A DNA stretch of 10,268 bases from a virus (taxonomy: Duplodnaviria > Heunggongvirae > Uroviricota > Caudoviricetes). Every line of letters starts with the position of its first letter. The first letter of the stretch is position 1. Position numbers and translations under genes: made by a program. Positions 4,164-10,268 of the stretch are shown piece by piece. The stretch lies in IMG/VR virus record IMGVR_UViG_2563366845_000009, positions 1 through 10,268 of that record. One strand, given 5' to 3'. Below the pieces are notes generated by a model. The model was not told the DNA's origin and did no database searches. It saw only the letters and a list, made by a program, of their open reading frames with translations.

Positions 4164-5566
4164 AACTGGCACCGAACGTAAAACTGTTACCGAAAGATAA
4201 ACACACTGAGGCGGTTATTTTTGCGGGTGATAATGCTCACTCCTTTGCAGAACATTACATGATTGCACAGGCCAAAAAAGCAGGCGATCCCATCCCTCCG
4301 GTTTACCTGGGCCGTTATCAGTTAAGCGAACTGGACAATTTACAGATTGTTGATGAAGGACGATACAGAGCAAAGGTCATACGCGCCGGAAACCTGGACG
4401 ATATGCAGATGCTGACCATTGCCACCAAACTGGCGATCGCAGGTGTCCAGGAAGCACGGTTACTTTCAGAGAATTTCGAACTGCTGGAGGACTGGAGCGA
4501 GCAACTACCGCGGCTTAAAGAAACCTGGGAACGCGGGGAAAGTCTGGTCATGAATGGTGGAAAGCGAAAAATCACACTTCCCATCTCATGGGGTTCTGAG
4601 GGATTCGACGCGCAGCAAAGCTACGTAATTAAGGGGCTTATTCCGGCTGAGTCATTATGCAGCACCTACGGGGCCAGCGGTTCTTATAAATCGTTCCTGG
4701 CTATTTCCTGGTCGTGCCATGTTGCCACAGGTATGGCATGGGGAGGCCGCAGGGTAAGTAAGGGCGCTGTTATCTATATCGCTGGCGAAGGCAGTATGGG
4801 CGTAAAACGCCGCGTTAAGGCGTGGGAGATAACCCATGACAAGGTGGTTACAGATTTGTGCATCGTTAACGCGCCTGTCTTCCCCGCATCGCCTGACTAT
4901 GTGGAGCAGGTTATCAGGACTGCCGGACTTGTTAAGAGCAGAACGGGCGAAAATGTGCGGCTGATTGTGATCGACACGCTGGCCCGTTGCTTTGGTGGAA
5001 ATGATGAAAATGATTCCCGCGATATGGGCGCATTTATCCAGGGGTGTGACGCGATAAAGCAGGCCACAGGGGCCACGGTGCTGGTGGTTCACCATTCCGG
5101 CAAGGATGAAACAAAGGGGGCGCGCGGTTCCAGCGCATTCCGTGCCGCGCTTGATGCAGAGTACCGAATCAGCCGGGAAAATTCAGAGGTTACAGCACTG
5201 GTGGCGGCGTGTACGAAGATGAAGGACGCAGAGGAGCCAAAAGAGAGTGCATACGATCTTAAAAGCGTGGAGGTGTTCACCGATACAGATGGCGAAGAGA
5301 TTGTGTCCATGGTGGTGATTGACGTTCCCCGCGCCCCTGCTGAACTGGAGCGCATAGAGGAGGCCGGGAACAAGACGGAAAATCACACGGCTTTATGGGG
5401 TTGTATCCGGTCGCGTATACAGCATGGTGATAAATGTACGATCCCGCTGCTACGTGATGACATGAAAAAGCTGGGATATGACACAAAACACCTTAAACGA
5501 TGGTTAGCCAAACTGGAAAAAGACGGCGTGATTTGCGTCGATGGGGATGATGTTCACCCACTGTAA
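4160..5566 (+). CDS. Replicative helicase, RepA / AAA_25 (RecA-like, DnaB-superfamily) ATPase
   Basis: 468 aa; Walker A-like GASGSYKS, Walker B-like hydrophobic stretch ending in Asp (RLIVIDTLARCF), and the VLVVHHSGKD motif typical of RepA-type helicases; GAGG ribosome-binding site 6 nt upstream; followed immediately by the iteron array. Confidence 0.82.
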   Translation: MKLAPNVKLLPKDKHTEAVIFAGDNAHSFAEHYMIAQAKKAGDPIPPVYLGRYQLSELDNLQIVDEGRYRAKVIRAGNLDDMQMLTIATKLAIAGVQEARLLSENFELLEDWSEQLPRLKETWERGESLVMNGGKRKITLPISWGSEGFDAQQSYVIKGLIPAESLCSTYGASGSYKSFLAISWSCHVATGMAWGGRRVSKGAVIYIAGEGSMGVKRRVKAWEITHDKVVTDLCIVNAPVFPASPDYVEQVIRTAGLVKSRTGENVRLIVIDTLARCFGGNDENDSRDMGAFIQGCDAIKQATGATVLVVHHSGKDETKGARGSSAFRAALDAEYRISRENSEVTALVAACTKMKDAEEPKESAYDLKSVEVFTDTDGEEIVSMVVIDVPRAPAELERIEEAGNKTENHTALWGCIRSRIQHGDKCTIPLLRDDMKKLGYDTKHLKRWLAKLEKDGVICVDGDDVHPL

Positions 5567-5766
5567 AAAGTGGGCGTTAAAAGTGGGAGTAGTGGGTAAT
5601 TTAACTGGAATTTAACAAAATCGCCCACTTTCCCACGTGTATACATCCCAAAAAGTGGGCACTAAAAAAATACTTATGAAACAGTACGATATAAAACCAC
5701 AAAATCCCAGGTGGGACGAAGTGGGAAACCATGAAAAGTGGGCAGAAAAAGTGGGCACAGGTGGGC
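5565..5766 (+). repeat. Iteron-type replication origin: nine direct copies of (A)AAGTGGGC in two clusters, two inverted copies, and an AT-rich spacer
   Basis: GTGGG cores on + at 5570, 5583, 5592, 5656, 5711, 5721, 5738, 5751, 5761; inverted CCCAC at 5624-5628 and 5632-5636; AT-rich 5598-5620 (AATTTAAC twice) and 5661-5705; immediately 3' of the helicase gene. Confidence 0.7.
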
Positions 5767-6020: not shown

Positions 6021-6439
6021 CAGCACAGATAGCGGCTTACGGGCGGCTGGTGGCTGACCCGCAGTTAAAGACCACCAGCAAAGGGACACAAATGGCGATG
6101 GCGAGTATGGCGGTTCCCCTGCCGTGCAGCCAGGCCGATGACGGAACGGCGACGATGTGGTTATCCGTCCTGGCGTTTGGCAGACAGGCCGACGCACTGG
6201 CAAAGCACCACAAAGGCGAACTCGTGAGCGTGGCGGGTAACATGCAGGTAAGCCAGTGGACAGGCCAGAACGGCGAAACGCGGCAGGGCTGGCAGGTTAT
6301 CGCAGACAGCGTAATCAGTGCGCGAACGGCGCGACCGGGCGGCAAAAAAGGCCAACAGGGGCAGGCCACTGATGCACTGAACAGGGCAAAACAACAGGCG
6401 GGAAATGATGATCCGTACGGGGATAACATACCGTTTTAA
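6017..6439 (+). CDS. ssb: Single-stranded DNA-binding protein (short SSB with acidic C-terminal tail)
   Basis: 140 aa; N-terminus (AYGRLVADPQLKTT, then QWTGQNGETRQ) fits the SSB OB-fold pattern; Gly/Gln-rich linker; C-terminal DDPYGDNIPF resembles the conserved SSB tail (E. coli ends ...DDDIPF). Confidence 0.85.
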   Translation: MTAQIAAYGRLVADPQLKTTSKGTQMAMASMAVPLPCSQADDGTATMWLSVLAFGRQADALAKHHKGELVSVAGNMQVSQWTGQNGETRQGWQVIADSVISARTARPGGKKGQQGQATDALNRAKQQAGNDDPYGDNIPF

Positions 6440-6456
6440 GCAACGAGTGACAGAAG

Positions 6457-6478
6457 CCGGGATTTTCCCGGTTTTTTT
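6457..6478 (+). terminator. Rho-independent terminator downstream of ssb
   Basis: Stem CCGGG(A)/(T)CCCGG (6457-6471) followed by seven T (6472-6478). Confidence 0.6.
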
Positions 6479-6527
6479 ACGGGTCCTCCCGGTGGAGTGG
6501 CCTTACCACGGGGCGGGAGCGGCGCGG
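6472..6527 (+). other. cos-like site, copy A (cosQ/cosN-like core with a divergent right half)
   Basis: 6472-6516 (TTTTTTTACGGGTCCTCCCGGTGGAGTGGCCTTACCACGGGGCGG) is identical to 9009-9053; the next 11 nt match copy B at 8 of 11. Contains dyad CCCGGTGG-N10-CCACGGGG and the ACG|GGGCGG junction resembling the lambda cosN nick site. Confidence 0.5.
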
Positions 6528-6740
6528 AAAAAGGCTGGTTTTTGCATTTTCATGGCGGCGGCAGCATGTGTGATAATTTATTGATAATTAAAAAATATTT
6601 CCGTTTTCACCTGTACAATATTTTTTTCGCCCTGTCATTAGACCAGTTTGTAATTAATTGAAATATATAAATAAATCCGTTTTTCACCTGCCAGGTGGAG
6701 TTGCCAGTGTCAAAACGTGTTCAGATGGCGGGATATTTAT

Positions 6741-6763
6741 GCCGGATTTTCTCCGGCTTTTTT
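6741..6763 (+). terminator. Second rho-independent terminator-like hairpin in the ssb-capsid intergenic region
   Basis: GCCGGA-TTTTC-TCCGGC (6741-6757) followed by TTTTTT (6758-6763). Confidence 0.45.
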
Positions 6764-6865
6764 GTGTCTGAATCTGACTAATCTGTTTTCATGATAGAAA
6801 TATATTTATCTACCACTTTTATCGATCAATAATGCGCGCAGTTTAGTCAGTAAGAGGAAGTTACT

Positions 6866-7075
6866 GTGAATTGTATTAATGACCTGAACACAGGCGAGGT
6901 AAGAGGTGGTTCCGTTCATCTGGATGCGCAGACCGTTATGCGCCTTAAGCAGTACAGGATCGACCACATAAATCATCATCCTGGCCAACCATTACCAGGT
7001 GTGGCGCAGATTGTCAGACACGCAGTTAACGCGTGGCTTGATAAGAATGGTTTTGCATCTGGGGGTGAGCAATGA
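6866..7075 (+). CDS. Hypothetical small protein (69 aa), translationally coupled to the protease-capsid gene
   Basis: GTG 6866 with GAGGA 7 nt upstream; stop TGA 7073-7075 overlaps ATG 7072; basic region (VHLDAQTVMRLKQYRIDHINHH) could bind nucleic acid. Confidence 0.5.
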   Translation: MNCINDLNTGEVRGGSVHLDAQTVMRLKQYRIDHINHHPGQPLPGVAQIVRHAVNAWLDKNGFASGGEQ

Positions 7076-8985
7076 ATCACTGGTACACCATTAAGGCGGC
7101 GGGTGTTCGCGGAGCGGCAGAAATATCCATCTATGAAGAAATTGGCGGCTTCGGTATCACCGCGAAGCAGTTTGCGGAAGACCTGAAAGCCCTGGGCGAT
7201 GTCTCACATATCGACCTGCGGATCCATTCGCCAGGTGGTGACGTGTTTGAAGGCATCGCCATCTATAACCTGTTACGGAATCATCCGGCAGAAATTACGG
7301 TTTATATCGATGGTGTTGCGGCTTCAATGGCTTCGGTTGTCGCAATGGCTGGCGATCGTGTTGTGATGCCGGAAAACGCCATGATGATGATACATAAGCC
7401 GTGGGGTATCTCTGGCGGAAATGCTGGTGATATGCGTGATTATGCTGATTTGCTGGATAAGGTGGAAACCGTGTTAATCCCTGCTTATGCCAGAAAAACG
7501 GGCAAATCAGCACAGGAAATTACCGCCATGCTGGAAGATGAAACCTGGATGGACGGGAAAGAATGCCTTAAGCAAGGTTTTGCTGATGAATTGTTGCCAT
7601 CCGTCAGAGCAATGGCGCGAATTGAATCGAAACGCACAGGAGATTTTTCACACATGCCGGAAACCATTAAAGGAATGATTACCCCGCCACAGGGAGCAGC
7701 CAATATTGCTGGTAATGAACAGAAGCGCATCAACGGAATAAGTGAAGTGTTTAGCCTGTTCGGCAGTCGTTACGACGGGATCAAAATGGCGTGCCTGGAA
7801 GATGCATCATGTACACCGGAGATGGCCCGTGAAAAGTTGTTGAACGAGATGGGGCGCGAGTCCACGCCATCAAATAAAAATACCCCGGCTCATATTTATG
7901 CCGGTAACGGGAACATAACAGGTGATGCAATTCGTCAGGGGCTTTATTCTCGTCTCGGGTATGAACGCCCAGAGCGGGGAAATCCTTACGCGATGATGAG
8001 CCTTTTTGAAATGGCCCAGGCATCACTAACGGATCGTGGTATCAGTGTTGGCGGTTTTTTAAATCGCTCGCAGGTCGTTAATGCAGCTTTCACACACAGC
8101 AGCAGCGATTTTTCTCATATTCTGGCTGGTGGTGCTGAAAAATCAGTACTGAAAGGCTGGCAGGACAGCGGCGAAACGTTTCAGAAATGGACGCGTACCG
8201 GATCGCTTTCAAACTTTCATGAAGCAAAGCGCGTTGGTCTGAATGGTTTTTCAAAGCTGGATAAAGTACCGGAAGGTGCGGAATATAAATACATCACCAC
8301 CAGAGATAAAGGTGTACCTATTGCGCTGGCCACGTACGGGAATATTTTTTCCGTTACCCGTCAGGCCATTATCAACGATGACCTGACCCAGTTAACTACA
8401 ATCCCCATGGCGATGGGGCGTGCGGCCGCCAGAACAGTAGGTAATCTGGTTTATCTTCTGTTAACCAGCAACGGCAAATTTACGGATGGTAAAGCGTTAT
8501 TCCATGCCGATCATAAAAATCTTATTGCGAAGGATATGGACATGGAGGGGCTTAACGAAGCCCGTAAGCTGATGCGACTACAGGAGGATGCCAACGGCGA
8601 CTCCCTGAATATTACCCCCGCTTTTGTTCTGGTCCCTGCTGCGCTGGAGTCTGCCGCACATCGCGCCATTCTGTCATCGTCATCACTCTTTCCGGTTGAT
8701 GGTGAGGGCACTATCAATCAGAACCCCGGCATCATTAACGTGGTGAAAGATATGGCTGAGGTTATTGTTGAGCCACGTCTTGATAAGAACAATAACAAGG
8801 AGTGGTATGTAGCCGCAGCGAAAGGGATGGACACGATAGAGGTCGCTTATCTTGATGGTATTGATACGCCATATCTTGAGGAGCAGGAGGGCTTTACTGT
8901 TGATGGTGTCGCCTGGAAGGTGCGCATAGATGCAGGTGTTGCGGCCCTCGATTATCGTGGACTACTGAAATCGAGTGGAGCATGA
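7072..8985 (+). CDS. Fused prohead protease (ClpP/S14-like serine protease) and HK97-fold major capsid protein
   Basis: 637 aa; N-terminal ~200 aa has the ClpP-like catalytic Ser context (GVAASMASVVAMAG) and His context (MMMIHKPWG); the C-terminal ~400 aa is consistent with a Mu gpT / HK97-type major head protein; an ORF of this length with no internal stops is strong coding evidence. Confidence 0.88.
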   Translation: MNHWYTIKAAGVRGAAEISIYEEIGGFGITAKQFAEDLKALGDVSHIDLRIHSPGGDVFEGIAIYNLLRNHPAEITVYIDGVAASMASVVAMAGDRVVMPENAMMMIHKPWGISGGNAGDMRDYADLLDKVETVLIPAYARKTGKSAQEITAMLEDETWMDGKECLKQGFADELLPSVRAMARIESKRTGDFSHMPETIKGMITPPQGAANIAGNEQKRINGISEVFSLFGSRYDGIKMACLEDASCTPEMAREKLLNEMGRESTPSNKNTPAHIYAGNGNITGDAIRQGLYSRLGYERPERGNPYAMMSLFEMAQASLTDRGISVGGFLNRSQVVNAAFTHSSSDFSHILAGGAEKSVLKGWQDSGETFQKWTRTGSLSNFHEAKRVGLNGFSKLDKVPEGAEYKYITTRDKGVPIALATYGNIFSVTRQAIINDDLTQLTTIPMAMGRAAARTVGNLVYLLLTSNGKFTDGKALFHADHKNLIAKDMDMEGLNEARKLMRLQEDANGDSLNITPAFVLVPAALESAAHRAILSSSSLFPVDGEGTINQNPGIINVVKDMAEVIVEPRLDKNNNKEWYVAAAKGMDTIEVAYLDGIDTPYLEEQEGFTVDGVAWKVRIDAGVAALDYRGLLKSSGA

Positions 8986-8992
8986 CAACAAG

Positions 8993-9015
8993 GGCGGCGA
9001 TAGCCGCCTTTTTTT
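8993..9015 (+). terminator. Rho-independent terminator downstream of the capsid gene
   Basis: GGCGGC-GATA-GCCGCC perfect 6-bp stem (8993-9008) followed by seven T (9009-9015); the T-run is also the first 7 nt of the cos repeat. Confidence 0.6.
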
Positions 9016-9090
9016 ACGGGTCCTCCCGGTGGAGTGGCCTTACCACGGGGCGGCAGACGCGCGGGTTTTCGCTATTTATGAGCCTTTTTC
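9009..9090 (+). other. Lambda-like cos site, copy B (cosQ/cosN plus proximal cosB), directly upstream of the small terminase gene
   Basis: Window CCACG|GGGCGGCAGACG|CGCGGGTTTTCGCTATTTATGA (9043-9082) compared with the lambda left end as recalled from memory (GGGCGGCGACCT CGCGGGTTTTCGCTATTTATGA): predicted 12-nt cohesive end GGGCGGCAGACG (9048-9059), followed by a 22-nt match to lambda. Upstream TACGGGTCCT matches the lambda right-end motif. Confidence 0.65.
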
Positions 9091-9192
9091 GGGTGCTGGT
9101 GGTGGTTTTGTTGTTCGCTCTATCTCTATGAATAAAAAGGGAAAGATAAAACAAATACACCAACCTGAAACATTACTTAAGTGGGGATATTG

Positions 9193-9735
9193 ATGAAATC
9201 GCACCTGATGAACAAAAAAAACATGGCGCAAAGCTGCCGTGTAAGTGCGACAGCGTTCGACAAGTGGGGAGTGACTCCCGTTGAACGTAAAGGCCGCGAG
9301 GCGTTTTATGATGTTGCCAGCGTAATAGACAATCGGGTTAGCAATGCAATTAACCAGATTACAGACGACAAAGGCGAGATTGATAATGATGAGCTTTTGC
9401 GAGTCAGGATCAGATTGCTGACAGCGCAGGCGGAGGCGCAGGAGCTTAAAAACGAGCGCGAACGCGGCGACGTGATTAGTACGGAATTTTGTATATATGC
9501 GCTTTCAAAACTGGCGAGTCAGATTTCATCTATCATGGACAGCCTGCCGCTTACCATGCAAAGGCGCTTCCCACAGATGACCCCCGCCATGCTGGATGGC
9601 CTGAAAAAAGAAGTTGTCAGAGCCTGTAACGCATGCACAAAACTTGATGAAAACATCCCGCGAATGCTGTCCGATTATCTGATGGAAACTACCGGAAATG
9701 TGTCTGATAAGTTTCAGCCGGATAAAGACAAGTAA
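9193..9735 (+). CDS. Terminase small subunit, lambda Nu1-like (winged-HTH cosB-binding)
   Basis: By recollection of lambda Nu1: LLTAQAEAQELKNERERGDVISTEFCIYALSKLASQISSIMDSLPLTMQRRFPQ aligns with RLTRAQADAQELKNARDSAEVVETAFCTFVLSRIAGEIASILDGLPLSVQRRFPE, and LDENIPRMLSDYL with LDELIPGLLSEYI. Start is ambiguous (GTG 9181, ATG 9193, ATG 9208); 9193 gives 180 aa. Confidence 0.85.
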   Translation: MKSHLMNKKNMAQSCRVSATAFDKWGVTPVERKGREAFYDVASVIDNRVSNAINQITDDKGEIDNDELLRVRIRLLTAQAEAQELKNERERGDVISTEFCIYALSKLASQISSIMDSLPLTMQRRFPQMTPAMLDGLKKEVVRACNACTKLDENIPRMLSDYLMETTGNVSDKFQPDKDK

Positions 9736-9776: not shown

Positions 9777-9896
9777 CAGCGTTGCGCTGGTGGGAGTTAT
9801 GCGTCAGTGATGAACAAAAAATAATCGAAATCGACACCGAAAAATAAAACATCAAGTCATATCAATATATTGCATTGGTGGTGATGACGAATAAAA

Positions 9897-10268
9897 ATGC
9901 AAAAACTAGCCTTTTTCCGCGATGCTCCCGCCCCGTGGCAGGGCACCCCACCAGGAGGACCCGCCATCACTATGGAGGCCATGACCATGACCGAGACCGA
10001 AGCGCTCGGGATAATCCGCAGTATTACCGGAATCAGCCAGCAGGCTGACGAACAGGCCACGCAGCCGGATACAGTCACCGCTGAAAATTACGCGCGTGTG
10101 ATGGCTGAGGTGATGCGCCGTGACGGTATCGAGCTTAATGGCGTGGATATACGCAACATACGCACCAGAGTTCTGGAGATGTTGTCGTACCGTCGCCGCG
10201 TGCAGATGTACCAGGAGAAAGAAAAAATTACGTACCAGTGGAAGAAGCCGGAGCGGTTACGGCGATAA
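9897..10268 (+). CDS. Hypothetical protein (123 aa from ATG 9897; alternative 98-aa start at ATG 9972)
   Basis: Open frame ending at TAA 10266-10268; ATG 9897 has no Shine-Dalgarno; the in-frame ATG 9972 has AGGAGG (9953-9958) but a long 13-nt spacer. No recognisable motif. Confidence 0.4.
   Translation: MQKLAFFRDAPAPWQGTPPGGPAITMEAMTMTETEALGIIRSITGISQQADEQATQPDTVTAENYARVMAEVMRRDGIELNGVDIRNIRTRVLEMLSYRRRVQMYQEKEKITYQWKKPERLRR

Follow-up and report, generated by a model that had tools for sequence, protein, structure and literature searches.

The question raised by this locus is what lies between ssb and the capsid genes of the island, in a gap of 338 bp (6528-6865; 340 bp as rounded in the initial annotation). 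It had been called a regulatory gap, and two readings of it were offered, i.e., that the cos site immediately upstream (cos A) has its own cosB here, or that the region encodes a short terminated RNA or an attenuator for late-gene control. When the sequence was read directly, all five motifs on which these readings drew (an extended -10 element, two direct repeats, a palindrome and a terminator) were found exactly at the coordinates given for them. The gap is a composite of two unrelated parts, the cosB half of cos A and a module of the island's own, and the term regulatory gap suits its right-hand third only, the left two-thirds being cosB. To this reading as a whole, the cosB of a cdtI-type cos followed by a terminator-promoter module, we assign a probability of about 0.75.

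The window, i.e., the whole stretch of DNA analysed (10,268 nucleotides, ~10.3 kb), is an EcCICFT073-type satellite island (PICI) of Escherichia coli RM11911, whose chromosome contains an identical segment adjoining tRNA-Pro, between yejM and yejO. The genes are, in order, those for a tyrosine integrase, an AlpA-family regulator, Ash and Icd-like proteins, a DUF4222 protein, a RepA-type helicase, ssb, a 69-aa protein, a ClpP-protease/major-capsid fusion, a Nu1-like small terminase and a final conserved protein. Gram-negative phage-inducible chromosomal islands (PICIs) have this architecture: the island carries int, alpA and, with iterons next to it, a replication module, its genes are co-oriented, the size falls within 10-20 kb, tail and lysis genes are absent, and the attachment site is specific. 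EcCICFT073 itself (locus L088, 12930-23700) is syntenic with the island gene for gene, sharing int, alpA, the Icd-like and DUF4222 genes, a replication gene, ssb, a small gene, a capsid homologue, cos and the final gene. Three lambda-like cos cores are present, A at 6472-6527 (+ strand), B at 9009-9064 (+) and C at 9891-9963 (-). Searched against Rfam at E up to 1, the whole window gave only matches to isrK/C4 at 2735-2933 and a weak sub-threshold match to snoR126 at 9802-9890. The former (+ strand; isrK 80 bits, C4 antisense RNA 75 bits, c4 a1b1 target 44.5 bits), which are above or near the gathering score, fall within the Ash/Icd-like region and are reminiscent of an antisense immunity module of the P1/P7/P4 kind.

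The left part of the gap belongs to a longer block with clear phage homologs. Bases 1-204 of phages cdtI and Tritos align colinearly with positions 6511-6714, and an internal stretch of phage HannyBb matches them as well, with 89-91% identity throughout (E 1e-71 to 4e-81); in all three the match stops at the gene for the small terminase (terS), of the DUF1441 family, and the cdtI-type stretch spans from the cohesive-end nick to the start of this DUF1441-type terS. The deposited linear genomes of cdtI and Tritos begin at the base aligned with 6511 and, since these genomes start at the cohesive end, base 6511 is bp 1. The heptamer GGGTCCT that constitutes cosQ of cos A (6481-6487, + strand; positions -30 to -24) stands 30 nt ahead of bp 1, an offset that is exactly the same in lambda and in cos B. 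The cosN of cos A (6503-6526, + strand), whose left cohesive end begins at bp 1 with GGGCGGGAGCGG, reads CACG, GGGCGGGAGCGG and CGCG in succession, compared with TACG, GGGCGGCGACCT and CGCG in lambda, and cleavage would, by analogy with lambda, leave an overhang of 12 nt.

Conservation was followed in 60 distinct prophage copies from IMG/VR (80 loci were listed, all 99-100% identical in protein), which served for per-column conservation only, divergent relatives of the terminase being taken from a phage collection, and in six islands with cos A that come from different lineages and integration contexts. In the 60 prophage copies conservation starts at the cosQ heptamer, and the sequence upstream of it is unrelated between prophages. 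Together, the homology to a phage left end, the offset of cosQ and the onset of conservation at the heptamer identify the block as a complete cosQ-cosN-cosB unit. Its right limit is set by the homologous terS of the prophage in NRG 857C, which according to PGAP starts at an ATG corresponding to position 6707 of the window, i.e., bp 197, close to where Nu1 starts in lambda (bp 191). Judged from its sequence, then, the stretch from 6528 to about 6700-6716 is the cosB of cos A, reaching about bp 196. The suggestion that copy A has its own cosB is borne out by homology and colinearity with the cdtI-type phages and by an invariant IHF consensus, and this cosB contains both repeats.

One element of this cosB is an IHF-binding consensus, TATCAATAAATTA, at 6574-6586 (bp 64-76, - strand), the equivalent of lambda I1, which is unchanged in all 60 prophage copies and all six islands. 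Exact matches to WATCAANNNNTTR number only two in the 10.3-kb window (0.49 expected), and the second, at 9860-9872, sits in cos C with the same offset from the core and the same relative orientation as in cos A. The consensus also occurs at this offset in phages phi458 and PSTCR8lys, and three other cos lineages in all have it there. To its left lies a near-invariant block, TCATGGCGGCGGCAGCATG (6550-6568, bp 40-58, + strand), conserved at 90-100% per column among the prophage copies and identical in the six islands; as lambda R3 occupies bp 50-65 (PMC9026076), this block stands at the R3 position and is a candidate for the primary contact of the terminase small subunit.

The two direct repeats, TCCGTTTTCACCTG at 6600-6613 (bp 90-103) and TCCGTTTTTCACCTG at 6676-6690 (bp 166-180), both on the + strand, share the core TTTTCACCTG (6604-6613, bp 94-103, and 6681-6690, bp 171-180, respectively). 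The distance of 85-165 bp from the cos core originally given for them holds when they are counted from 6511. Both cores are invariant in the six islands; among the prophage copies the core of repeat 2, just 5' of the former terS start, is the same in 57 of 60, and that of repeat 1 in 40 of 60, the other 20 having single-base variants. The four or five bases 5' of the cores differ between phages and islands. Outside this group, the same 10-mer occurs just upstream of the terS ribosome-binding site (RBS) in the Providencia phage PSTCR8lys, whose terminase small subunit is 56% identical and whose flanking DNA does not align; among the divergent relatives taken from the phage collection it alone keeps the motif, the mEp460, mEp043 and Stx2 types having an unrelated cosB. 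By statistics alone the repeats are marginal, and their reality rests on conservation: when the 338-bp region is shuffled with its dinucleotide composition kept, 11% of the shuffles contain an exact direct repeat of 10 nt and 6% a pair of 14-mers that differ by at most one edit, while TTTTCACCTG with at most one mismatch occurs three times in the window, against 0.78 expected. Both are candidate R-type sites for the terminase small subunit, as their sequence and position suggest. This statistical weakness and the variation of the repeat 1 core weigh against the preferred reading, as does the arrangement of the repeats, two direct copies 77 bp apart, unlike the lambda order R3-I1-R2(inverted)-R1; no inverted copy of TTTTCACCTG was found, and none at the R3 position or between cosN and the IHF site.

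Direct repeats in AT-rich DNA (34-38% GC) downstream of replication genes could also be taken as the replication origin of the island, a reading that we regard as barely conceivable, given that the region is homologous to a phage cos and not to an origin, and that three iterons at 5565-5755 directly follow the RepA helicase gene, where PICI origins occur (PMC6092414). These three direct repeats (AAAAGTGGGC...) have a spacing of 83-85 bp.

Two further motifs of the initial annotation are present as described but are not conserved as such. The palindrome CACCTG-C-CAGGTG (6685-6697) is perfect in none of the 60 phage copies, which read CACCTGCCAGATG there (CAGATG in 59 of 60), and in four of the six islands, where an A-to-G change makes it so. 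It is no conserved operator but consists of the core of repeat 2 abutting the region of a vestigial terS RBS, which supplies the right arm (6692-6697). The extended -10 element TGTGATAAT (6569-6577) occurs in this form in none of the 60 phages, whose copies read TTTGGTAAT and similar in its place, and in three of the six islands, and its TAAT forms one end of the invariant IHF site.

What has decayed in cos A is the gene that the phages carry next to it. Of terS there remains a translation-start vestige (6697-6716, + strand) with the Shine-Dalgarno sequence GGAG (6697-6700) and a GTG (6707-6709) that is ATG in the phages and GTG in the islands; similarity to the phages ends near 6714-6716, and the reading frame beyond is broken by a frameshift in island P27_L1. 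The cognate terS is missing after cos A and no DUF1441 gene is found within the window. With only the RBS and a mutated start left, cos A is an orphan site that would need the small terminase of a helper.

The same decay admits another explanation, namely that cos A is a non-functional scar, left when recombination with a cdtI-type prophage introduced the capsid gene, and that packaging proceeds only from cos B via the island's own Nu1-like small terminase. The start of terS is indeed lost (ATG to GTG, with the frameshift in P27_L1), the island owns a cognate pair of cos B and terS next to which cos A could be redundant, and one of the two cos sites of EcCICFT073 is dispensable (PMC6092414). 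We nevertheless consider this explanation unlikely, as the selective conservation of precisely the cos elements is hard to reconcile with it: the captured segment starts at cosQ, a functional limit of the cos, and has lost the coding part past the terS start, and all six islands have retained cosQ, cosN, the IHF site and the two repeat cores intact while neighbouring bases drift. Moreover, the slot after ssb holds in a sister island, FWSEC0008, a different and likewise complete cos with another cosB allele. That the cos elements were kept while the terS start decayed indicates that selection preserved the cos and let the terS gene die.

The right-hand third of the gap has a different origin. 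The window has three intrinsic terminators on the + strand, T1 (6452-6479), T2 (6741-6763) and T3 (8990-9015), of which T1 and T3 lead directly into the AC-GGGTCCT of cos A and cos B, respectively. T1, after ssb (RNAfold -14.8 kcal/mol), has a T-run that borders directly on the cosQ region of cos A, and in sister islands its hairpin is kept with a compensatory stem change (GCCGGG/CCCGG vs GCCGGA/TCCGGC). T2, a GCCGGA/TCCGGC hairpin followed by a T-run (RNAfold -10.6 kcal/mol), was the sole terminator-like site returned by a scan of 6300-7200; its stems are invariant and its loop variable in five islands with cos A. The second terminator of the initial annotation is therefore real, but it is not part of the cos: in two islands without cos A, 82.0311 and 24AR0180, perC stands ahead of a hairpin whose stems (GCCGGA/TCCGGC) agree with those of T2 and whose loop differs, and then come the leader and the small gene seen in the window. 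T2, on this sequence comparison, is the left edge of an island module that comprises the terminator, a promoter core (6779-6834) and the gene at 6866-7075. The T1 of sister islands is the same hairpin (GCCGGAGCAATCCGGC) that follows perC where cos A is absent, and T2 shares its stems, so that cos A lies between two copies of a single terminator, a hint at the way in which the cassette came to be inserted.

The promoter/operator core of the capsid operon (6779-6834, + strand) consists of 56 conserved nucleotides that are 86% identical in the FWSEC0008 island, whose flanks differ on both sides, and are also found in 82.0311, 24AR0180 and AH21H025. Conservation ends directly after AATAAT (6828-6833), the -10 element of a candidate promoter on the + strand whose -35 element is TTTATC (6805-6810), with a 17-nt spacer. 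This candidate was found by eye and agrees with the consensus at 8 of 12 positions, which is below the scan threshold, at which no strong sigma-70 promoter was found in 6300-7200; a promoter of the capsid operon here would be weak and probably activator-dependent. A Shine-Dalgarno sequence, AAGAGGA (6852-6858), precedes the first gene of the operon (6866-7075, + strand; GTG start, 69 aa), which matches phrog_4934 (E 2.7e-30), and whose stop codon overlaps the start of the protease/capsid fusion (ATGA at 7072). Neither the small gene that precedes the capsid gene in EcCICFT073 nor any solved structure proved homologous to it. RefSeq places a hypothetical protein on the - strand (6806-6988) across the operon leader. 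Changes counted in the + frame 6866-7075 are mainly synonymous (15, against 7 non-synonymous), those in the RefSeq - frame mainly non-synonymous (12, against 1 synonymous), and the latter call is probably a misannotation repeated in many genomes, the true gene being the + ORF.

A terminator 170-190 nt 3' of a -10-like element is also what would be expected of the other reading offered initially, either as an RNA of ~180 nt running from the extended -10 element (6569-6577) to 6763, or as an attenuator gating read-through from ssb into the capsid genes, which would be opened by translation of a 24-codon vestigial ORF (6707-6781) through the hairpin or by AlpA-type antitermination. All genes are co-oriented, three terminators stand in series and the island encodes an AlpA homologue; AlpA of Pseudomonas is a processive antiterminator (PMC7969949), and the serial terminators of the island may be read through by an antiterminator of this type. 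As a whole, the RNA or attenuator appears very unlikely to us. The putative promoter is variable, TGTGATAAT being missing from all 60 phage copies and altered in three of six islands; the mini-ORF is frameshifted in one island; in the islands that lack cos A, a terminator with the same stems just comes after the stop codon of perC; between its cosB and the promoter core, FWSEC0008 lacks a terminator on the + strand; and no Rfam match was found in 6400-6900 at E up to 1. A structured RNA or riboswitch in particular was rejected, the fold of 6584-6765 having a z-score of -0.95, with no Rfam match there.

Set beside lambda, cos A as a cdtI-type cos shows a common layout built from different sequence. 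Apart from the shared cosQ spacing, the cohesive end opens with GGGCGG, which is rich in G, the start codon of the small terminase lies about 180-190 bp from the nick, and an IHF site in the first half of cosB is followed by repeated short motifs (PMC9026076, PMC4669245); cos A shares with lambda-type cos sites cosQ at a fixed distance, a lambda-like cosN and an IHF site in cosB. Its arrangement resembles I1-R2-R1 of lambda in position, but not in orientation or number, with two direct repeats as opposed to three of which one is inverted. In contrast with these similarities, the cosB sequence of cos A is unrelated to that of lambda, and its cognate small terminase belongs to the DUF1441 family and not to Nu1, and is missing in the island.

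The comparison with EcCICFT073 is likewise divided. Multiple cos sites per island have already been described, as EcCICFT073 has two (PMC6092414), and these correspond in place and orientation to cos B (+) and cos C (-), while the slot held by cos A in the window is filled by perC. The cosB regions of EcCICFT073 resemble no phage cosB, have neither R repeats nor I1, and are recognised by a heterodimer of Rpp and TerS (PMC6739421, PMC9026076). Cos A, in contrast, nearly reproduces a phage cosB and includes an IHF site, and the island is without Rpp: RppA of CFT073 matches PDB 6hlk (RppC) at E 5e-31, and the window proteins tested (9193-9735 and 9987-10268) match neither that entry nor RppA.

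Further parallels are satellites that carry the cos of their helper, such as 11capE with 50icd, P4 with P2 and SaPIbov5 with phi12. In 11capE, a 258-bp stretch at the cos position is 90% identical to that of its helper prophage 50icd (PMC10111431), in the same class of length and identity as cos A compared with the cdtI-type prophages. Unlike the present case, 50icd has a capsid of the lambda-E type, as opposed to the protease/capsid-fusion type with a DUF1441 terminase, the reports on 11capE, P4 and SaPIbov5 describe no dissection of cosB elements, and in the present island the helper-type cos is accompanied by two more cos sites of other specificity. In the literature on the DUF1441 terminase we found incidental mentions only and no study of its cosB.

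Potential helpers are common and match the island in more than cos. When 5,426 complete E. coli genomes were considered, 737 of them (about 14%) had a cdtI-type cosB together with terS in full; strain TK3896 carries both the island and a cdtI-type prophage, and the RM11911 record has 2-3 places that match a cdtI-type search. The head of the cdtI-type prophage in NRG 857C is made of a ClpP-protease/capsid fusion with which the island's own fusion shares 57% identity and, with both cos A and the capsid homologue matching, the island is matched twice to the cdtI-type prophage family. This double match parallels the lambda-E-type capsid gene of EcCICFT073. When the island fusion (7072-8985) is compared with the NRG 857C protein (locus L103, 24495-26522), a stretch of ~29 residues within the linker between the protease and capsid domains is missing in the island. 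The island protein might conceivably redirect capsid size, as Ccm of SaPIbov5 does.

By analogy with lambda, we infer the following use of cos A. After induction of the island and rolling-circle replication, the DUF1441-type small terminase of the helper would bind cosB, contacting the TTTTCACCTG repeats and probably also the invariant block at bp 40-58, while IHF would bend the DNA at 6574-6586. The large terminase would thereby be placed to nick cosN and to package rightwards. T2 would close any transcription arriving from upstream, and the putative promoter and the operon leader would follow, from which the capsid operon could be expressed.

The other two cos sites differ from cos A in kind. 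Cos B (9009-9200, + strand) is identical to cos A in its first 45 nt, from cosQ to the nick, and 100% identical to lambda over bp 13-34 after the nick; the gene that follows (9193-9735) encodes a Nu1-like small terminase 36% identical to lambda Nu1 over its full length, and the two look like a cognate cos/terS pair owned by the island. Cos C (9803-9966, - strand) is inverted relative to A and B, carries its own IHF consensus, and is 86-88% identical over 164 nt to the cos and cosB that phi458 and mEp460 carry; the small terminase of these phages is a DUF1441 relative with 42% identity. The second cos of EcCICFT073, in the corresponding place, is inverted as well. What follows the capsid gene is swapped between islands (L096, 6464-6949; L095; L088, 22659-23093): it is a Nu1-like terS in the window, a DUF1441 terS in AH21H025 and rppA in CFT073, while FWSEC0008 has nothing there, and each of these variants adjoins a cos with a different cosB. 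We tentatively propose, at somewhat less than even odds, that cos A (cdtI/DUF1441), cos B (lambda-like, with its own Nu1-type terS) and cos C (mEp460/phi458) are three packaging-specificity cassettes that would make the island packageable by three lambdoid helper lineages, and that the slot after ssb would be a point of cosB exchange between sister islands.

That a satellite carries the cos of its helper is already known, and in this respect the finding is ordinary. The island is, however, a counter-example to the Rpp model, as it keeps a near copy of a phage cosB and is without Rpp although it is a close relative of EcCICFT073. It also provides a first sketch, at the level of sequence, of the cosB type of the lambdoid prophages with a DUF1441 terminase, in which the invariant IHF site, the TTTTCACCTG repeats and the block at the R3 position offer concrete targets for mutagenesis. 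Of wider interest is the presence of three cos sites with three types of cosB: taken together, cos A, B and C suggest that the helper range of a PICI can be read from its cos alleles, which bears on predicting which prophages mobilise which islands.
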